In this document: positions 11,012 through 40,029 of the stretch, in pieces
Layout of the letters: every line of letters begins with the position of its first letter
How positions within the stretch are numbered: position 1 is the stretch's first letter
NCBI GenBank assembly: GCA_965652925.1
Contig: CBFGXL010000004.1
Span: 358-64,357, forward strand
Direction: 5' to 3'
From: an uncultured bacterium
GTDB taxonomy: Bacteria > Patescibacteriota > Minisyncoccia > Phycocordibacterales > UBA918
Length of the DNA stretch: 64,000 nt
Made by a program: the position numbers and the translations under genes
The notes under the pieces: generated by a model
Told to the model about the DNA's origin: nothing
Database searches by the model: none
What the model saw: the letters and a program-made list of their open reading frames with translations, nothing else

Positions 11012-11410
11012 TTACACAAACAGCTTCTGCGCGATGAAGTAGGTAATGGTAGATACTGAAGAGGCAAGCACCGCTCCCCAGAGAATATCAACGCCAGTGA
11101 CAAGCAGTGGCCAGTTTTTTAACGTAGCAAGATTGGTGAGATCATAGGTCGCATAGGCAATGCCTCCAAATAGTGCGCCAAACAAAAGCGCATGCGCCCA
11201 CTCCCCTTTCTCAATGGCAGGAACAATCACAAACACGATCAATCCAACAATAAAAATGAGATAGAAGAGTATCGCAGCAGTCCAGTTAATTGACGGAGCC
11301 ATCAAAAACCCGATCTGCTCACGATAAAAATTTCGAGCGATGAACCCAAGCCAAACAAGGTCGATGAGAAAAAAGATCGGCAGTGCAATAAGAAAGAGCT
11401 TTAGAAGCAT
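11012..11410 (-). CDS. Small integral membrane protein (DUF2177-like)
   Basis: 132 aa with four predicted TM helices. The pattern resembles COG4852/DUF2177. Confidence 0.45.
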   Translation of the reverse strand: MLLKLFLIALPIFFLIDLVWLGFIARNFYREQIGFLMAPSINWTAAILFYLIFIVGLIVFVIVPAIEKGEWAHALLFGALFGGIAYATYDLTNLATLKNWPLLVTGVDILWGAVLASSVSTITYFIAQKLFV

Positions 11411-11640: not shown

Positions 11641-11966
11641 ACTTGTTCGCAGGCTCACAGCGCTCCGGCTATCACAACGGCACGCAAGCGACGCAGGTCG
11701 CTTGCTAGAACAAAAAAGACCCCAGCTCTTGCTGAGGTCTTTTTTGTTCTGCCGTTGTGAACATCATCGAGCCAATTCTCGAATGCCAAAACGGCAAATT
11801 AGGCAGCCTTTTCAGGACGACGATGATGAGGTGAAGCACCCTGAGCTACACGCATACATACGATTTTGCCATCAGAGCTACATGCGGATGAAGCGTGAAG
11901 GCTCGTGGCCATGGACCAGAAATAAATCTGATTGTGACGAGTGGTGAGGAGCTGCGTAGAGAGAAC

Positions 11967-12494
11967 TTATTTCTTAAGACTATCAAATAGACGAATAAGC
12001 TCCTTTGAGAACTTATTCAATTCTTTAGTACTTATCAATGGTCTAACATACGGAAGAGGCTTATTAAACTTGGGTGGTATCTTAAATCCGAGTAATCGGA
12101 GGATTTTTTTCGATAGAGCTACACCGTCCTTGTATGTTGCTTGAGCCTCTTTCATCAATGCTTCTATTGATTCATAGTGAAGAGTATTGTGGATAATTTT
12201 ATTGCGTCGTGCGTTATAGGTTACCAACTCAGCAACAATAGATGGCTTTCCCCCCAACAGTTCATAAAATGAAATCAGCTGCGAGAATTTGGCATCGCCG
12301 TCCCAGTATTTCTTATGGGTTTTCTTCCGCTTACCTACAAAGGTGGTAATTAGCAATCTCAACATCATCTCGAGGGATGCCGTCTGCAGAACTAGGGCTT
12401 CAATATGGTCACCATTCACTTCGCTAGCCATTCTGGCCTTTAATCTAACGAGGCTAATAGTGTCCTTGCTGAGTTTGTTCCAGTAATTGGCCAT
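11967..12494 (-). CDS. Hypothetical protein with HEPN-like Rx4-6H motif
   Basis: ORF starts ~50 nt after the tRNA-Glu 3' end with no terminator between. Contains NARRNKIIHNTLHY, which fits the Rx4-6H HEPN signature. Start taken at MANYWNKL. Confidence 0.4.
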   Translation of the reverse strand: MANYWNKLSKDTISLVRLKARMASEVNGDHIEALVLQTASLEMMLRLLITTFVGKRKKTHKKYWDGDAKFSQLISFYELLGGKPSIVAELVTYNARRNKIIHNTLHYESIEALMKEAQATYKDGVALSKKILRLLGFKIPPKFNKPLPYVRPLISTKELNKFSKELIRLFDSLKK

Positions 12495-12541
12495 AAAGAT
12501 TGGCAGACAGCTAGGCTGCCCGAGTTGCCAGACTGGCAAGT

Positions 12542-12613
12542 GTGATCCCACGGAGAATCGAACTCCGGTTTCCAGGATGAAAACCTGGCGTCCTAGCCGC
12601 TAGACGATGGGAC
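12542..12613 (-). tRNA. tRNA-Glu (anticodon TTC)
   Basis: Manual fold: GGTCCCA acceptor stem, D-arm GTCTAGCGGCTAGGAC, anticodon stem CCAGG/CCTGG with loop TTTTCAT, T-arm CGGAG TTCGATT CTCCG. Close to a canonical bacterial tRNA-Glu. Confidence 0.85.
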
Positions 12614-12690
12614 CGCATATACGCTGAAGGTGTATTCAAACGTGCGCCATATAGTAACAAAAAAACTGGAAAATGCTAGGGTATATTTCC

Positions 12691-14586
12691 CTACGGCTGG
12701 GCCATTATTTTCTCCGATTTGACGAACTCTATAACGTTCTGGTTGTGGTCTATGGTAAACAATACCCCTTTGGTGGTGCCGTTTTTGAGCATCAGCTCGC
12801 TTGCCTCTTCCACGGTCGTATACAACGCGACATTCCGATGAGCGCAGAGGATGACTACCGACGATATGATGTCATTGAAACGGTCCGGGTCAGCGGGGAT
12901 AAGGAATGCAACCTCATCATCTGCAGTGCGCTCCCGAATGACATCCCCCAAATTGCAATATTCAAAACGGTCGGCAGTCACACGTGTTCGGAGGTCGAGG
13001 GCATAGATAGTGAGTGACCCTGCAATAATGACAAAAAACAGAAACGCTGACGTTATACGTATGAGCGTCTGTTTAGGGGTCTTAAGAAGCCACAGCTTGT
13101 ATAAGCATAGTGGGATAATAATGCAGAACAGAGGAACTGTTTTGAGTACAGAATAGAAGTGTATCTCAAACGCAGACCAATCAAGAAACACCAGGTGATG
13201 GAGCACTACCGGCAATGCAAAGAAATAGAGCACCGGATACGCGAAGCGCAATGACGTGATAGAATCCTCTTTTGCCTTTCTCCCGCCAAACCAAAGCAGT
13301 GCGGCAAACAGAACAAGGGACATCAGCAACGGACTGAACCATTTAAGGTAATTTTTTCCGAGTGCAATGAGCAATTGCGAAACACTTCCCGCTTCGCTTT
13401 CTTCAGGCACATACCCGTTTAGATAACGATCGGTCATCACCGATAAAAATGAACCAGTATCCGAAACCGACGCATACTGGAGGACTGTTGCAGTGAGCAC
13501 CACTATAGGAATAATTATGCTCATGAGCAAAAGCGGCAATGCGAATCGCTCTCTTCTGCGAATGAACGCATAGAAAAAAAGAGCTGCACATATGAACAGG
13601 CCAATCCACTCACTGTATACGGTCAGCGCAAGTGTAAGCGCAAGTGCAATATATTCTCTATGCAAAACTTCTTTTCTAGAAGTAATGATCGTATAGAAAA
13701 GATACCCGGCAAGAACAAACAATACTTGAACAAACATATCCGACATGTAGTTCACCGTATGCATATAGAGAGATATGCCCGTAAACAAATATAAACAAAA
13801 GCCGATCAGCCCTACATACACATTCTTGGTCATCCTATACAAGAGGAGCAAGAGGATGCTGGCAGTTGCTATCTGAACAAGGACGTTAAAGATGCGTAAC
13901 CCGACAACATTTGGCTCAAATCCAGACGCAGCAAAAAGTGCATATGGAGCAATGTATGCAAAGGGCGGGTAGGAAACATAGTAATAGTCGCCTGCATCAT
14001 TGCTGTATCCCATCCTATCCACTTCGATCGAAGAATGGTTGTTTATGTGCTTATTGCTTTCTCCAGGATACGTCACTGGAGGTACAAAGTGATGTGTCAA
14101 TCCTCCATCCTCGTGCCATATTTCCAGATGCCGAAGCACGGTTGCGGTGTGCCATTCATAATCGAACGCACGAGGTGTCACAATTGATTCCCACCTGATG
14201 CCCAGAGAAAAAAGCGTCACCACGACGCCAGACGCAGCAAAAAGTGCATATGGAGCAATGTATGCAAAGGGCGGGTAGGAAACATAGTAATAGTCGCCTG
14301 CATCATTGCTGTATCCCATCCTATCCACTTCGATCGAAGAATGGTTGTTTATGTGCTTATTGCTTTCTCCAGGATACGTCACTGGAGGTACAAAGTGATG
14401 TGTCAATCCTCCATCCTCGTGCCATATTTCCAGATGCCGAAGCACGGTTGCGGTGTGCCATTCATAATCGAACGCACGAGGTGTCACAATTGATTCCCAC
14501 CTGATGCCCAGAGAAAAAAGCGTCACCACGACGCAAATGCCCAACACAATCGCATTATTTCTCTTCATGATAGTCCTCTTCTGCAT
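12691..14586 (-). CDS. Polytopic membrane glycosyltransferase (GT-C fold, ArnT/PMT-like) with an internal 102-aa perfect tandem duplication
   Basis: About 14 predicted TM helices. The N-terminal loop [15 protein letters not shown] resembles the GT39/GT83 loop motif. Residues 19-120 are repeated exactly as 121-222. Confidence 0.5.
13917..14533. repeat. Perfect 306-bp direct tandem duplication (2 units) inside the glycosyltransferase CDS
   Basis: Unit 13922-14227 is identical to 14228-14533, with a CAAAT microhomology at the junctions. The two antisense track ORFs 13911-14198 and 14244-14504 encode identical peptides because of it. Confidence 0.95.
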
Positions 14587-16120
14587 TTATATCCCAGACT
14601 TTTTCCTTCGGATAGTTTCCCAAGATTGATTCCACCGAAGCCATTGCAGTCAGCATGGAATGATCCTGATTATTGTAACGGTGCATACCGTTTCGACCAA
14701 TGGGATAGAGGTTGGCAATGCCGTTGAGGTACCGCTTCACAATATCAAAATCCTTATATACGCCCGAATACACCGGGTAGGCTTTCGGTACTTTTTCAAC
14801 ATGATAGGCCAGGGCCTGATGCTTCGAGAGACCTATGTGCTCAAGCTCTTTCGATGCAAGTGCACCGAGGTCCTCCTCTGACATCCTCCAGAGCGGATCG
14901 GTATCATTGCAAAAATATTCCATACCAAGCACCTGGGCATTGGGTGACTGCACCATATATGGGCTCCAGTTACGAAACAGCTGGATGCGCCCTACCTGTA
15001 CTTCAGGATCATGGATGTAAATCCAGTTGTCCGTGAGTTTGAGTAGCTCTGCATCCTCCACGAGCACACCTATGGTGACAAAATCCCGAAATGTGAGGTG
15101 TTGCGCAACAGCAGAGACCTCTTGTGGTGGTGCCTGCGTGAACGCTGCAAACAGTTCAGTAATGGGCATTGTTGAAAAAAAATAGTCTGCCTCCAGCATG
15201 TGTTCTTCTCCCGTTTCAGTATCCCGATACGTTACTGCACGAACCCGCTCGTTGTTATTCTCAATTTTTATCACTTCAGCATTTGTTACGATCGATCCAC
15301 CTTTCTCTTCTATGGTACGAGCAACCACCTCCCACAGATGTCCAGGGCCGTATTTAGGATAAAGAAAATATTCGATAAGTGACGTTTCGACATTCTTCTG
15401 ACTGATGTTCGCTTTACGAAACAAACGCAGTATGCTGTTCTGAACAGCTTTCCATACGGAAAGACTCTTTACACGCTGCCTTCCCCAGTCAGCTCCCAAA
15501 TCTGTACAACGCAGTCCCCACACTTTTTCAGTGTATGTCTTAAAAAACGTCAGATACAGTTCATACCCAAAACGATTGATGAAAAAATCCTCCAAATTCT
15601 TCTCTTCTCTAGGAAAAAGAAGAGAATGTACATAACTCGTTCCTATTTTGAGCATCTTCACCACACCCAGATTCGAGAGTGTCTTCCATGAAAGCTCAAC
15701 AGGATATTCATAGAATTTCCCGCCATAGAATATGCGTGATCTCCTTTTGCGCACAAGCATGACATCTTCATCATTGTCATGGATTGCAGAGGATGGGCGC
15801 TCAAGAACATGCGTTCTGTTTTGATATGAGAGTGCTATATGCTCATCACTTCCTTTTTCAAGTGGCAGCACATCAAGCCACCATGAGACAACCTTGTCAG
15901 ACTTTGAGAAAAAACGATGCCCTCCAATATCCATTCTGTTTTCCCCAAACTGCACTGTCCGAGAAATACCGCCAAGATGCCGGCTTTTCTCAAGGATAAT
16001 GGGTTGAATATCCGTGTGACGGAGAAGTTCTAGCGCCGCAGTGAGTCCCGCGGGTCCAGCCCCGATGATCACTGCCTTTTTTGTTTTCGGTGTTTGTTCA
16101 GTCATTGGCTGTGGAGACAT
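14555..16120 (-). CDS. FAD/NAD(P)-binding oxidoreductase (amine-oxidase/UDP-galactopyranose-mutase-like Rossmann fold)
   Basis: [17 protein letters not shown]...[13 protein letters not shown] dinucleotide-binding motif. About 520 aa. Start uncertain (MSPQP at 16120 or MTEQ at 16105). It overlaps the GT-C gene start by ~30 nt. Confidence 0.6.
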
Positions 16121-16154
16121 GCGTGCATTGTATGCTCTAGTATATACTATCTGC

Positions 16155-16547
16155 ATGACCAGAATGTTGCGCTCGTTTATCGTCTTTTGCTTTGTCGGCG
16201 CCATTAGTTCCCTCATAGATCTCGGCATTTTGTATATGCTTGTTGAATACTTCGAGTTTTCTGTATATCTAGCAGCCACGCTCTCTTTTACCCTTTCATC
16301 GCTCAATGGCTACACCCTCAATAAACTCATCACTTTCAGAGACACTTCTCTGAGCGTCAAACGCCAATATATCTCTTATGTGTTAGTCAATCTCATTGGA
16401 CTCGGGCTTACGCTTATGCTCCTCTTCCTCTTTATAAATACTTTTGGGCTCTACTATATGCATGCTAAGATACTCACCCTTGCTATCGTCGTCCTTTGGA
16501 ATTTCGGAGGCAGCAGGACTTTTGTATTCAAAAATAGAACACACTGA
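16155..16547 (+). CDS. GtrA-family membrane protein (polyprenyl-linked sugar translocation-associated)
   Basis: About 130 aa with four TM helices and a [21 protein letters not shown]...[11 protein letters not shown] pattern typical of GtrA. Start taken at MTRML. Confidence 0.6.
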
Positions 16548-33605: not shown

Positions 33606-35282
33606 TTACAGTACATCCTCTTGCGGCGCAACGACATCAGTCTTGAATATACGTCGATGGAATGCCTTATATATCTCCTGAAGCTCAGGCGAGCGGAGCA
33701 TGTGATAAGTCAAAATCACTCCGACAATGCCTACCCCGCCGCCAAGCATTCCCTGGATGAGAATACCGAGGAAAGAAGCCTCGTTGATACCTCCAACAAA
33801 GAAGTTGAGAGTGGCATACGCACACAAAGAGCCCACCAAAGTTGCCAAAAAAGCTCTGCCGAGGTTTGAGGAAAGCCATACAAGAGGTATCGAGAAACTT
33901 CGCACAGCACAAAAGAACAACACCAACGTCTGTGCGCAGATTGCAATGCTGTAGGAGAGCGCCACAATGACCACTTCAGAGCCGGACACTCCTTCAATGC
34001 GAAGCAAGGATCCGAGCACAGAGACAAAGCCGGGGTAGTTGACATACATGCCGTACATGAAGAATGTCAGAGCAACAGCGAACAGCGAACCGACAAACGT
34101 GACGACAAATGGCGTTTTAGTATTACCGCCTGCATAGAATGCACGAACAATGAGGAGGTTGATCGCCTGGGCAAAAAGAGACAGGCAGAGAAGTGCGAGT
34201 GTTGCTGCTGTCAGACGTGTATCTCCCCAATCAAATGCGCCGCTTCCAAGTACCACACGGACCAATTGTGCACGAAGGACTATAACAAGTCCTATTGCCG
34301 GCACCGACCAGAAAATAATATGGCGCAGGGCTGTGACAATGTGAAGCCGGAATGCATCCATTTTCTTCTGCGCAAACAGATCAGCCAAAAAAGGAAACGC
34401 GGCAATAGAGTAACTCGCTCCAATGACGGCAAGCGGCACCGACTGTAGATTGTATGCTAACTGAAACACCGCAACGGAACCCACGGTCATGAGACTAGTG
34501 ATACCGATCAATACCAAAAGAACTATCTGATGCATGGCAAGCGTTATAGCGCGCGGAACCGAAACGCCGAGCACTTGTTTGATGAGCGGAAAAGAAACTG
34601 TTGTGGTGAAACCGAACGAGAGATTACTCTTCTGAACCAAGGGAAGTTGGACGAGCATATGTCCTAACGCGCCCAACACTACGCCAAGTGCCAATCCGGA
34701 AAGTCCCATGTATGGATACAAAAAAACAATGCCGGCGATGATACCGATATTATAAATAAGCGGACTTACTGCATAGAGCACAAATCGGTGTCCGAGCTGC
34801 GTAACCACACCGAACAAGCTCGAGATACCAAGCAGCATTGGCTGCAAAAGCAGGATACGCGTAAGTGTTACAAGCTCCTCCTGATGCTCCACCATGCCAG
34901 GAAAAAGCAAAGGGAGAATGAAGGGTGCACACACAGCGATGAAAAGCGCCAGAACTGTGTACACTGCAAGGAACACGCTAAACACCTGACTTAAAAGTTG
35001 TCGTGCTGAGGACGCATCGTCACCTTTAATGCGGCTCGCAACAAAAGGAATGAGCACATACACTGACAAAGTTGAGGCGAACAGCACATACAAGAGATCG
35101 GGTATTCGGAACGCAGCATAGTACAGGTCAAGCTCAACACCAGCACCGAATTCGTGAGCAAGCATGCGGTCCCGCACAAGTGCAAGAAGTTGTGAACCGA
35201 AAGTGAAAAGCCCAAGAACGTACGCGGCCTGATGCAGGCCGCGTACTTCTTTGTATACTATCTCGAACACCTTCTTTACCAT
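33606..35282 (-). CDS. murJ: Lipid II flippase MurJ (MviN)
   Basis: 558-aa protein with about 14 TM helices. N-terminal region ...GSQLLALVRDRMLAHEFGAG...DLYYAAFRIPDLLY is typical of MurJ/MOP. Confidence 0.85.
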   Translation of the reverse strand: MVKKVFEIVYKEVRGLHQAAYVLGLFTFGSQLLALVRDRMLAHEFGAGVELDLYYAAFRIPDLLYVLFASTLSVYVLIPFVASRIKGDDASSARQLLSQVFSVFLAVYTVLALFIAVCAPFILPLLFPGMVEHQEELVTLTRILLLQPMLLGISSLFGVVTQLGHRFVLYAVSPLIYNIGIIAGIVFLYPYMGLSGLALGVVLGALGHMLVQLPLVQKSNLSFGFTTTVSFPLIKQVLGVSVPRAITLAMHQIVLLVLIGITSLMTVGSVAVFQLAYNLQSVPLAVIGASYSIAAFPFLADLFAQKKMDAFRLHIVTALRHIIFWSVPAIGLVIVLRAQLVRVVLGSGAFDWGDTRLTAATLALLCLSLFAQAINLLIVRAFYAGGNTKTPFVVTFVGSLFAVALTFFMYGMYVNYPGFVSVLGSLLRIEGVSGSEVVIVALSYSIAICAQTLVLFFCAVRSFSIPLVWLSSNLGRAFLATLVGSLCAYATLNFFVGGINEASFLGILIQGMLGGGVGIVGVILTYHMLRSPELQEIYKAFHRRIFKTDVVAPQEDVL

Positions 35283-35290
35283 GTGCTTCT

Positions 35291-37780
35291 TTATTGCTGC
35301 TGTGTTTCTACATCGGCATCTTCCTCGCTATCAATGATATTCACGGGGGAAACAAGCGACGTGTCAGGAGTTTCGGTGGTTGTTATCGCATCATCTTCAG
35401 CACTCACCGTCTGAGGTTCATCAACCTGTCCAGTCGTCTCAGGAGCAAGGATAAGCGGCTGCCCAGACTGCAGCTGAGCAATAAGTGTCTCCACTTCGAC
35501 ATTGCCAGGGTTTAGCGCCAAGACTGCCTGCAGTTGAGCAATCGCCCCTTTTGTGTCACCTTTTTGAGCGAGAGAAAGTGCGAGGAAATAGCGAGCATTG
35601 GCATAATTGGTATCAAGTTCTATTGCTTTATTAAAAGCCACAATCGAACCATCAATATCACCGCTTGCGGCAAGCAATACGCCAAGCTGATAGTGCCGGG
35701 CAGGGTTGTTCGGTTCAAGAGAAGTGATCGCTCGGGTTGTTGCAACAGCGTTATCGGTTTTTCCTTCGGCAATATCTATCTGCGTAAGAAAGAACAATGC
35801 ATCAGTGTAATTACGTTTAAGTGTAGCTGCCTCTTGCGCTTTTGTGCGCGCATTTTCAAGATCACCTGTTCGTGAAGCAAGCTGAGCTTCAAGAAGAGCA
35901 TAGAGAGGGTTCGCCGGATCAAATGACCTCGCTTTTGTGAAAGCTTCACCTGCCTTGTCTTGTGCACCTTCTACAGAAGCGGCCGCCAGAACACTGTAAA
36001 TGCTGCCGAGCATAGACCAGTTAAGTGAATCAGTCGGATCCTGATTTGTAGCAAGCATTGCTGCATCAATACCTGTCTGCACACTTGCCTGAAACTCAGC
36101 CTGCTGTTCCTCAGAAAGTTCAGGCAGTGATACAAGGGCATTGATCTTAGCAAGCTGATACGATGCAAGTTGGAGCGCATACGCCTCATTTTGAGAAAGT
36201 CGGTATGCTTCCACAATATCCTCTTCAATCTGTGCAATGTCCGCACCAACAACCTGTGCTGAAGACAGCGCTTTACCATACGTATGCACACCCGAATAAT
36301 GTCGAATGGTGTAGTACAGTGCGCTTGATGACCCGACAATGACGATCATGACAAAACCCACAAGCAGGATACCGGCTCGCTTATTTGAGGCGATAGAGAA
36401 CGAAAAGACTCTTGAGGGCACTGACACGCTGTATGCCGCAAATGTAACACTGGTAAGAATGCCAGCCAGGAGGATGATAGTTGCGCCCGGTACATACACA
36501 AAGGACATGACCCACAGATACGTCGATGCAACGAATGAAGAACTGCCTATGAAGTACCAGAAAGTATCTTCCCGTGTCGCTCTGAAAAGCATGCGGAAGC
36601 CTGCGTAGAAAAACAGGGAGAAAAAGACCAACCACGCAGCGATGCCAAGAATACCTGTAGTTGCGAAGAATGTTGTCAGATAGCCACTGGCACCCTTGAA
36701 ATCCGTTGCCCAAAATACCGTCTCATTGATCGCCGGGTCTTTGTAGAGACGCCAGGCATCAACGAATTTATTCGGTCCGATCCCAACAAACGCATTCTCC
36801 TTGAAAACATTCCGTGTTATTTCCATAGTTGAAGAGAATGATGGCCTCACCTCAATATATGAGATACCTGTCGCCTTTGAGATCATCCCTCCAATAGGAC
36901 CACTTCCGATAATAAAAAGAAGAGAAACAATAAAAACGAGTGTGGTAAGTACGATAGAAGGTATTGATATGCTTGTCTTTTTCCCTTCCAGAGTCATGGT
37001 CTTCTCAGCAAACCGATCCTTGGTGAGACTGTACATCAAGAGGACAAGGCTCACGAGCCCGAGAACGATCCAGACGGCATAGAAGTTGACCACCCCAAGC
37101 ATGATAAGCGCAAAAACGATAACTGTGGCAAACAGAGTTTTGCCTGAACGAGTAAGCGGTAGTTGTTCAAATGCAACTAGCGCTACAAGAATTGAGAGGC
37201 CGAAAAACAAAGCCAAGTCATTCCATCCCCCAATCGGCGTGGACACAAGATCACGCAAGAGTCCCAACGATAGCATTTCCGGCCCAAAAAACAGCCGCAG
37301 CAGGTGGAATACGCCGAGGACAACCGCACTTCCGGTTAACAGTACGTATAAGCGCATGATGCTTCCTTTGGTCTGACCAATAAGAAGCGTGACAGTTGCA
37401 ATGCCTGCTAGTAACACAAGAAACAAACTTGTATGCACGCCGATGTCATCTCCAATGAAGGCATCGCGCATATCTCCCGATAAGACAGCCGACACCACTG
37501 TTGCAAGGGCAACCCCCCATAAGCCCCACAAAGCAAGCGGGGCAGCAAGAGACACCTTGCCTGAGCGCAGGACCGACAAACTGAAAAAAATAACAGAGAG
37601 CAGTACGCCGACTATGACAAAAATGGTCTTTGCATAATCAAATGGTATGTACGAAACGGGAATAAAAAAAAGCGGAAGGACTCCAAACACAACCGCAATA
37701 ATGTTCTGTGCTATTTCTAACAATGTTTGTTCGATCGGATCCTTCGAGTCATTCTGCTTGAGCAATATTGTTTCCTGCAT
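35291..37780 (-). CDS. Large polytopic membrane protein (O-antigen ligase/Wzy_C-like) with C-terminal TPR repeats
   Basis: N-terminal ~500 aa contain 10 or more TM helices. C-terminal ~300 aa contain multiple TPR-like repeats (…NARYFLALSLAQKGDTKGAIAQLQAVLALNPGN…). Confidence 0.45.
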   Translation of the reverse strand: MQETILLKQNDSKDPIEQTLLEIAQNIIAVVFGVLPLFFIPVSYIPFDYAKTIFVIVGVLLSVIFFSLSVLRSGKVSLAAPLALWGLWGVALATVVSAVLSGDMRDAFIGDDIGVHTSLFLVLLAGIATVTLLIGQTKGSIMRLYVLLTGSAVVLGVFHLLRLFFGPEMLSLGLLRDLVSTPIGGWNDLALFFGLSILVALVAFEQLPLTRSGKTLFATVIVFALIMLGVVNFYAVWIVLGLVSLVLLMYSLTKDRFAEKTMTLEGKKTSISIPSIVLTTLVFIVSLLFIIGSGPIGGMISKATGISYIEVRPSFSSTMEITRNVFKENAFVGIGPNKFVDAWRLYKDPAINETVFWATDFKGASGYLTTFFATTGILGIAAWLVFFSLFFYAGFRMLFRATREDTFWYFIGSSSFVASTYLWVMSFVYVPGATIILLAGILTSVTFAAYSVSVPSRVFSFSIASNKRAGILLVGFVMIVIVGSSSALYYTIRHYSGVHTYGKALSSAQVVGADIAQIEEDIVEAYRLSQNEAYALQLASYQLAKINALVSLPELSEEQQAEFQASVQTGIDAAMLATNQDPTDSLNWSMLGSIYSVLAAASVEGAQDKAGEAFTKARSFDPANPLYALLEAQLASRTGDLENARTKAQEAATLKRNYTDALFFLTQIDIAEGKTDNAVATTRAITSLEPNNPARHYQLGVLLAASGDIDGSIVAFNKAIELDTNYANARYFLALSLAQKGDTKGAIAQLQAVLALNPGNVEVETLIAQLQSGQPLILAPETTGQVDEPQTVSAEDDAITTTETPDTSLVSPVNIIDSEEDADVETQQQ

Positions 37781-38825: not shown

Positions 38826-39233
38826 TTACCAAGGCCAATACTGGATAACAAATGCTCCCCCAACTACAAAAATGAAAAAGAAGCTTGCGTGTAAAAGAAA
38901 ATAGATAAGCGTTCTGCCTTCCTTCAGACACAGCGATGCGAGGAATGCACATACAAACAAAAATACATAGAGCGAGACATAAAATGGTGAAAGTGCAAGC
39001 AATGGTGAAAGCGCAAGCAGATATGAAAGCAAAGACAATAGTATGGCGTACGTTACTCCCATAAATAGGAGCTGCAGTGCTTCACTGTATTCTTTTTTCT
39101 GCGCCGAAGTGAGGGCGTGTTTCTCCCACACACCGCCAAATAAATAAGACGAATACCAGATAGTACTGATAGCAAGCATCAGGAAAGTACTCCCGATAAC
39201 TGCGATTTCATTTATGATCGTGAAAGGTGGCAT
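38826..39233 (-). CDS. Hypothetical polytopic membrane protein (135 aa)
   Basis: Start taken at internal MPPFTIIN. The longer track ORF would overlap the upstream methyltransferase gene. Four TM helices. Confidence 0.4.
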   Translation of the reverse strand: MPPFTIINEIAVIGSTFLMLAISTIWYSSYLFGGVWEKHALTSAQKKEYSEALQLLFMGVTYAILLSLLSYLLALSPLLALSPFYVSLYVFLFVCAFLASLCLKEGRTLIYFLLHASFFFIFVVGGAFVIQYWPW

Positions 39234-39282
39234 GGGTACTTTCAGTATACCAGAGCACCAGAGGCGATGACACGGCGCGTGT

Positions 39283-40029
39283 TTAGGAAAGAGCGGTAGG
39301 GTGCGCGACACTCCATGCATAAAAAGCCACTGCTGCTGACGCTGATGCGTTGAGCGACTCTGTTCGTTTGTGCATCGGGATGCTGAGTATGACATCACAG
39401 TGCTCGCGCGTCTTCTGTCGTATGCCCTCCCCTTCATTGCCAAGCACAAAGACAGTTGGCTTGCGGAAATCCTCGTCAGGGAGTGCTGTATCCCCATGTG
39501 CATCAAGTCCGTAGACGAAGAAACCATCCTTCTTCAAGTGCTCGATTGCACGGTTCACATTGGGCACCTCAACGAGCGGCACCTTAAACGCCATCCCTGC
39601 CGAAACCTTCACCACCGTACCGGTGACGCCCGCTTGCCGATGTTTAGGTATGAGTACGCCAGAAAGGCCAAATGCTGCCGCTGATCGCACGATCGCTCCC
39701 ACATTATGTGGATCCTGTACTTCACCCAGAAGCGCCAGAGCAGTATCATCCTGCACAGACAGTGTTGCCCTGAAGTCATCAAATGACAGCACGAGCCGTT
39801 CCTTATCTATCTTGGCAATCATGCCCTGGTGCACGGCATGCTTATCAACCCCCCGCGGAACCGCATCGCCTTTGAAGTACTGCACCTTCTTAACTGAAGA
39901 GAGGAGCTTACTGCGCACCTCTTCCTTTACATCCTCCCGCAAAAAAACCTCAGCGATCACATCGCTTCGAAAAGTAAGCGCCTCGATCACCGCGTGCTTG
40001 CCGTAGATATATATGTATCGGTCATCCAT
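39283..40029 (-). CDS. TrmH/SpoU-family RNA 2'-O-methyltransferase (RlmB-like)
   Basis: SPOUT motifs (LGEVQDPHNVGAIVRSAAAFG, VFVLGNEGEGI, LNASASAAVAFY) and an N-terminal substrate-binding domain. Start taken at MDDRYIYIYG. Confidence 0.8.
   Translation of the reverse strand: MDDRYIYIYGKHAVIEALTFRSDVIAEVFLREDVKEEVRSKLLSSVKKVQYFKGDAVPRGVDKHAVHQGMIAKIDKERLVLSFDDFRATLSVQDDTALALLGEVQDPHNVGAIVRSAAAFGLSGVLIPKHRQAGVTGTVVKVSAGMAFKVPLVEVPNVNRAIEHLKKDGFFVYGLDAHGDTALPDEDFRKPTVFVLGNEGEGIRQKTREHCDVILSIPMHKRTESLNASASAAVAFYAWSVAHPTALS

Follow-up and report, generated by a model that had tools for sequence, protein, structure and literature searches.

Why does a gene for a membrane glycosyltransferase carry a perfect 306-bp tandem repeat, and is that repeat present in cells or only in an assembly? 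The question is raised by a locus of an uncultured Candidatus Saccharibacteria (TM7) bacterium, within the 64,000 nucleotides of contig CBFGXL010000004.1 that we analysed (positions 358 to 64,357, called the window below). Here a gene on the minus strand (12691..14586) encodes a predicted GT-C-fold membrane glycosyltransferase of 631 amino acids, 529 in what its homologs indicate was the ancestral form. An earlier note, made from the sequence of the window, had drawn attention to the repeat. We read it as a recent illegitimate tandem duplication that is polymorphic in a Saccharibacteria population and probably perturbs membrane topology, and we put the probability of this reading at roughly 60%. 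The duplication is young, and one- and two-copy forms of the gene are both found among related environmental samples.

The repeat, its joint and the protein that carries it

A unit of 306 nt is duplicated head to tail, with window positions 13922-14227 and 14228-14533 identical at 100% and without a single indel. The periodic stretch spans 13922-14534, the copies having just one additional nucleotide in common, and according to Tandem Repeats Finder the array is the sole long tandem repeat across the 64 kb window; a chance origin of the perfect repeat is ruled out. The copy nearest the gene start (14228..14533, minus strand) encodes residues 19-120, that is, the C-terminal half of the first transmembrane helix (TM1) and the whole of the first external loop (EL1), and the second copy (13922..14227, minus strand) encodes residues 121-222 and runs into the native second transmembrane helix (TM2). 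These two blocks of the 631-residue protein are identical, the frame is kept, and 102 residues are gained; removing one copy gives exactly the 529-residue database protein P0001. Both the perfect nucleotide identity and the exact, in-frame 102-residue repeat described in the earlier note are thus borne out, the latter by mapping of the translation.

The boundaries of the array are a different matter. On the coding strand, the novel copy-to-copy joint (14226..14229) reads ...GCGTCTGG/CGTCGTGG... (in short form GCTGCGTCTGG/CGTCGTGGTGAC) and has 1 nt of homology, the left boundary of the array reads ...GGGCATTTG/CGTCGTGG..., and the right boundary ...GCGTCTGG/ATTTGAGCC.... A 5-nt CAAAT microhomology had been proposed at the junctions. 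Reading all three boundaries, we found the pentamer only outside the two array ends (13917..13921 beyond the low-coordinate end and 14534..14538 beyond the high-coordinate end) and missing from the internal joint, and it is therefore not a junction microhomology; had it been one, the period would be 311 nt and the frame would shift, whereas the real joint is essentially blunt with an overlap of 1 nt. We also rejected the idea that CAAAT marks the target site of an inserted element, duplicated on insertion: taking away the array together with one pentamer would remove 617 nt, a length not divisible by three; an inserted-element origin is further contradicted by the unit encoding conserved family sequence. 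Matching 5-mers in such a flanking arrangement are seen at 0.11% of window positions (p 0.0011).

The single-copy protein was modelled with AlphaFold2 (AF2) on an alignment of 27 sequences, giving a mean predicted local distance difference test (pLDDT) of 90.2 and a predicted template-modelling score (pTM) of 0.91. In this model TM1 is a helix of residues 2-34, EL1 extends from 35 to about 122 with helices at 43-58 and 107-119 and short strands between them, and TM2 is a helix of residues 125-151. The claim that the duplication doubles the first extracytoplasmic loop and the first transmembrane helix therefore stands for the loop, and not for the helix, of which only the outer (C-terminal) half, residues 19-34, is doubled. 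As read from the sequence, the charge pattern fits an N-terminus inside and EL1 outside: K3, R4, K8 and R9 precede TM1, the TM2-TM3 and TM4-TM5 loops also contain R and K, and the TM3-TM4 loop has neither.

EL1 carries much of the conservation of the family. Of the 33 columns that are invariant or nearly so, the duplicated unit contains 13 (R29, E42, W43, W55, G59, P67, I79, G97, Y100, Y101, S103, P105 and P112). The aspartate of the DAGDYYY motif in EL1 had been put forward as catalytic, a proposal that the alignment does not favour: D98 varies across the family, and the conserved acids are E42, which is at least 90% conserved and lies in EL1 eight residues past TM1, and D181, which is invariant and belongs to the TM3-TM4 loop. 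E42 is thus likely the better candidate for the predicted catalytic residue in EL1.

At the level of the predicted fold, structure comparison with the single-copy model confirmed that the transferase belongs to GT-C, as first proposed, in a family that is uncurated. The top 30 Foldseek matches in the PDB were all GT-C enzymes (E 4e-8 to 2e-2, query-relative TM-score up to 0.60), including human STT3A, yeast Stt3, PglB, ArnT, DPY19, AftA and Pmt4 (E 4e-8 to 5e-4), with ALG3 also among the 30. At the sequence level there was no Pfam match at a curated threshold, PF02366 (PMT) scoring 17.7-18.2 bits with a cut-off of 22.7, and no NCBIfam match for the transferase. PMT was detected at E <= 0.01 in just 6 of 27 relatives (best 7.5e-8), and a sequence search of the family profile against the solved structures of the PDB gave no match. 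When the profile was searched against 1.84 billion cluster representatives, 2187 members were recovered at E <= 1e-3 and 749 at E <= 1e-30, a family of about 2,000 cluster representatives that spans Saccharibacteria, Bacteroidota and other phyla.

In every homolog checked, the gene has one copy of the unit. All 29 homologs in the word-indexed database are single-copy proteins of 415-550 residues, the EL1 repeat is absent from the best 150 of the 2187 cluster representatives (nearly all 480-560 residues), and homologs down to 22% identity carry one copy, as does the nearest species representative (CAZKFF010000006.1, locus L015), which is 79% identical over the transferase at the amino acid level. 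By this comparison the single-copy 529-residue gene is the ancestral state. An ancient internal domain repeat typical of the family, which the earlier note had allowed as an alternative, has in its favour the mere presence of two copies and nothing further; with the copies 100% identical and every homolog checked (L015 included) single-copy, where orthologs with two diverged copies were looked for, we rejected it and regard its probability as negligible. Three distant family members of 632-646 residues (P0047, P0100 and P0139) reach a similar length by another route: some 110 residues are added at the N-terminus, with two more predicted transmembrane helices. This stretch is unrelated to EL1 in sequence and adds an even number of passes, compared with the half pass of the duplication.

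Two alleles in environmental assemblies

The 631-residue protein occurs on nine NCBI/ENA contigs, and a T384A variant of it (P0176) on one more, making 10 in total, from samples that include ERZ27245862, ERZ27321039 and ERZ27320628. In the five loci that we read (L011-L014 and L065) the joint is identical, and their profiles of single-nucleotide polymorphisms (SNPs) differ, both among themselves and relative to the window; the duplicated loci therefore derive from separate read sets. The single-copy protein P0001 and its point variants (P0171-P0175) are found on about 20 contigs. Two-copy and one-copy loci are both more than 99.9% identical to the window; the single-copy locus L001, for example, has 2 differences from it over 21,590 positions. 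The SNP at 13434 (T282A), 488 bp away, occurs with both allele states, giving all four allele-SNP combinations, and among the compared loci we found no flanking SNP that is linked to allele state, the pattern being a mosaic. A scan of Joint Genome Institute (JGI) metagenomes with a 37-mer from the repeat unit gave no match. The earlier suggestions that the duplication is very recent and that the locus is heterogeneous both agree with these data, the copies being identical, the single-copy allele lying on nearly identical backgrounds and both forms being found across samples.

Four of the single-copy contigs come from Logan assemblies (L008, L009, P0174 and P0175; the runs named are SRR32277361 and SRR32277367) and cross the unit unbroken. 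Logan contigs are built from k=31 de Bruijn graphs without read pairs and break at repeats longer than k. A 306-bp repeat would interrupt such contigs at its borders; that these four run on speaks for a joint that is missing, or scarce, in those runs.

Predicted consequences, origin and rival explanations

The joint fuses the last helix of EL1 to half of TM1, creating a hybrid hydrophobic helix of about 25-30 residues. Its new hydrophobic segment, residues 110-128, scores 1.88 on the Kyte-Doolittle scale, and the part after the joint begins with VVVTLFSL. Because the unit amounts to half a membrane pass instead of passes in pairs, a frustrated membrane topology with reduced or altered function is expected. 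Two outcomes are possible. Should the hybrid stretch cross the membrane, the orientation of the second EL1 and of all that follows would be inverted; if it stays on the outer face, two copies of EL1 would compete for one active site. The AF2 model of the 631-residue form places copy 2 and everything downstream in the native fold, with a hybrid helix of residues 107-136 replacing TM1 and residues 1-106 at a pLDDT of 35-54; its alignment had depth for one copy only, and the model is uninformative on function. On reading the sequence for an internal restart at Met90, which would make the hybrid helix the first transmembrane segment, we saw no convincing ribosome-binding site.

As for its origin, the ancestral single-copy gene of 529 codons would have undergone an illegitimate, essentially homology-free joining (1 nt) that produced the 306-bp tandem duplication, likely by unequal sister-strand exchange or by template switching in replication. 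The perfect direct repeat so formed would be unstable and, on our reading, segregates within the natural population. Two perfect 306-bp repeats should readily undergo deletion, with or without RecA, such that loss of one copy by recombination or slippage would restore the exact wild type, and unequal exchange would give three copies; reversion or expansion would be far more frequent than point mutation.

The structure needed for precise gain and loss, two perfect 306-bp direct repeats, is in place, and the locus might serve to turn one step of envelope glycosylation on and off at a slow rate. We think it improbable, though, that Saccharibacteria use it as a reversible switch between a normal 529-residue enzyme and a disabled or re-specified 631-residue one, with host or phage selection keeping both. 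Similarly doubtful is an adaptive functional allele, in which the doubled EL1 changes acceptor or donor specificity, or in which a selected contingency switch lets an episymbiont vary its surface glycan to evade phage or host recognition. An adaptive role would agree with the retention of the frame (prior 1 in 3, with the open reading frame intact in all 10 duplicated contigs), with the commonness of the allele (present in about one contig in three, and in the populations of higher abundance), with its presence on T282 and A282 backgrounds alike, with the precedent of pneumococcal capsule genes, and with the three N-terminally extended family members, which suggest that the N-terminus tolerates additions. 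However, half a transmembrane helix per unit argues against a neatly folded gain-of-function protein, the absence of such a repeat from the best 150 of 2187 representatives argues that it has not been retained over evolution, and zero divergence between the copies leaves no time for selection to have made a mark. If the alleles truly coexist, a small-genome episymbiont would be varying a surface-modification enzyme without mobile elements or simple-sequence repeats. A true switch would make this the first description of a contingency-type locus from an episymbiotic bacterium of the candidate phyla radiation (CPR), and it would link the transferase and the FAD oxidoreductase encoded beside it, as one module, to surface variation.

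A further rival holds that no cell carries two copies. An assembly or library artefact would account for the perfect identity of the copies, which is expected from a loop-traversal error, and it is in keeping with the duplicated contigs all coming from one assembler (SPAdes-style NODE names) and apparently from one project series (ERZ272459xx, ERZ27320xxx and ERZ27321xxx). Yet a de Bruijn assembler needs reads with the unit-end/unit-start k-mers to write the joint, the identical joint was assembled independently in at least five assemblies with different SNP profiles (10 contigs being recorded), random chimeric reads would not recreate one joint across samples, and there is no second long tandem repeat in the 64 kb window. 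The artefact that the earlier note had considered is thus very unlikely, and the joint itself is very probably real. The opposite explanation is fixation of the duplication, the single-copy contigs arising as loop collapses at low coverage, with no polymorphism or switching. It draws on the perfect separation of the SPAdes contigs by coverage (at least 6.4 for the 5 duplicated and at most 5.3 for the 11 single-copy ones, probability 1/4368) and on the behaviour of SPAdes, which picks loop traversals from read-pair support that is weak at 3-5x coverage. Fixation fits poorly with the four Logan contigs from separate runs that span a single copy, as branch nodes would break k=31 contigs at the unit borders, and with the protein cluster containing no N-terminally cut fragments of about 410 residues. 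We therefore consider fixation unlikely, and it is probable that both alleles are real somewhere in the sample series.

Several observations weigh against a recent, polymorphic and topology-perturbing duplication as we propose it. SPAdes coverage splits the alleles perfectly (duplicated 6.4-8.0, n=5; single-copy 2.4-5.3, n=11), for which the exact one-sided probability is the 1/4368 given above, and some or all single-copy SPAdes contigs could be loop collapses, making the per-sample allele mix uncertain. Either the assembler crosses the loop only with enough read-pair support or the duplicated strain is more abundant; short-read metagenome assemblies can flip between structural alleles with coverage. 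Copy number is likewise set by the assembler, so that two copies as opposed to three or more is a statement about contigs alone. The SNP patterns are weak evidence, metagenome consensus contigs being potential strain mosaics, and recurrent gain and loss is unproven by them. A one-step blunt duplication leaves the flanking CAAAT pair unexplained (p about 0.001); the pair may be due to chance, or may be the trace of a 311-nt duplication followed by a frame-restoring 5-nt deletion. Finally, loss of function is something that we only infer, the frame is intact in 10 of 10 duplicated contigs, and the AF2 model of the longer form fits copy 2 into the native fold, though on an alignment that covers one copy.

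Neighbouring genes, other variation and known systems

Directly upstream of the transferase, in the same operon, lies a gene for an FAD/NAD-dependent oxidoreductase of the PRK07208 type (14555..16306, minus strand; NF005546, 703.7 bits), whose stop codon overlaps the transferase start and which is untouched by the duplication. The other related loci are mostly from Bacteroidota and Rhodothermales, and in about 23 of 50 distant loci (L015-L059 being among the loci) the transferase gene is immediately preceded by an oxidoreductase homolog, the taxa with this pairing including Saccharibacteria, Rhodothermales, Crocinitomicaceae, Flavobacteriales and Arenicella. Given this recurrence, the GT-C transferase and the FAD oxidoreductase form, by gene order, a conserved two-gene module. 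An unnamed GT-C family that is usually paired with a PRK07208-type flavoenzyme is part of what the locus offers, the duplication alone being of modest interest.

A divergently transcribed gene (16041..16547, plus strand) encodes a GtrA-family membrane protein (Pfam PF04138, E = 2.3e-24). Its adjacency is conserved in the nearest relative, L015, and was detected in no more distant locus. The protein is a candidate handler of a lipid-linked sugar, and by analogy GtrA beside a polytopic transferase points to a sugar donor linked to polyprenyl phosphate and consumed on the outer side of the membrane. A T/C SNP at 16230 (L012 and L013), located between gtrA and the gene for the oxidoreductase, alters both called starts, changing GtrA from 103 to 127 residues and the oxidoreductase from 553 to 516; lying in the shared 5' region, it might affect expression of the module.

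Elsewhere in the window, a 780-bp segment (11761-12540) that abuts the 3' end of tRNA-Glu(ttc) (12542-12614, minus strand) is missing in L010. It carries an orphan open reading frame (11967..12551) with no Pfam match, and contigs of several other samples stop precisely at 12541-12543 or 11668, both of them branch points of the assembly. The segment looks like a presence/absence polymorphism at the tRNA, and no long att-like direct repeat was seen at the segment beside tRNA-Glu. The DUF2177 gene (11012..11410, minus strand) has dense SNP clusters, each in a single sample on a near-identical background (13 SNPs in 136 bp at 11081-11216 in L007, and 4 SNPs in 49 bp at 11273-11321 in L005), which resemble short tracts imported by recombination, or a second haplotype. 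An 18-nt tandem repeat at 38983-39030 (2.1-2.7 copies, 87-94% matches), inside an open reading frame for a DUF1761 protein (38826..39527), keeps the frame because its period is a multiple of three. Adjoining the gene for the lipid II flippase MurJ (33606-35282) is one for a protein of 829 residues (35291-37780, minus strand) with C-terminal tetratricopeptide (TPR) repeats, whose N-terminal 570 or so residues have no Pfam match at 1e-5 and which may be another large envelope membrane protein.

Compared with STT3/PglB, ArnT and PMT, the transferase is alike in its predicted fold (E down to 4e-8, query TM-score 0.5-0.6). It appears to be alike also in that TM1 leads into a long external loop that has two helices and an acidic residue under conservation, in that the TM3-TM4 loop carries a further conserved residue, the aspartate D181, and in its small soluble C-terminal domain. 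It differs in lacking a family match at a curated threshold or a sequence match in the PDB, and its conserved partner, the FAD oxidoreductase, is not known from the STT3, ArnT and PMT systems. The locus resembles GtrABC-type glycan modification modules in having a GtrA-family gene beside a polytopic transferase, whereas it has no adjacent GtrB-like GT2 gene, the neighbour being the PRK07208-type oxidoreductase.

The closest precedent for the duplication is capsule phase variation in Streptococcus pneumoniae, where, according to the account in PMC4022640 of the work of Waite et al. (2001, 2003), spontaneous tandem duplications in cap3A, cap8E/wchA and tts switch the capsule off and precise loss restores it. 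Both cases involve a perfect head-to-tail duplication in a gene of the surface-polysaccharide type, with wild-type and duplicated alleles that coexist, in our case probably, and the possibility of exact reversion. They differ in that the pneumococcal duplications abolish the capsule and were shown to switch in culture, whereas the present one is known from assemblies alone. The pneumococcal duplications are reportedly 11-239 bp long; ours is 306 bp, in frame, and lies in a GT-C membrane transferase of a Saccharibacteria metagenome-assembled genome. We found no literature linking Saccharibacteria with tandem duplications. Short-junction tandem duplications, with their RecA-dependent and -independent loss, have been studied in Salmonella and E. 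coli by the Roth and Lovett laboratories. The likeness to these lies in the joint of 0-1 nt and in an unstable perfect repeat open to precise loss or amplification, and the difference in scale and setting, the duplications there being mostly of kilobases to megabases or in engineered reporters and the one here small, natural, intragenic and seen in metagenomes only. The duplication is thus a familiar type of mutation in a new instance, within an uncharacterised GT-C family, and not a new kind of system.

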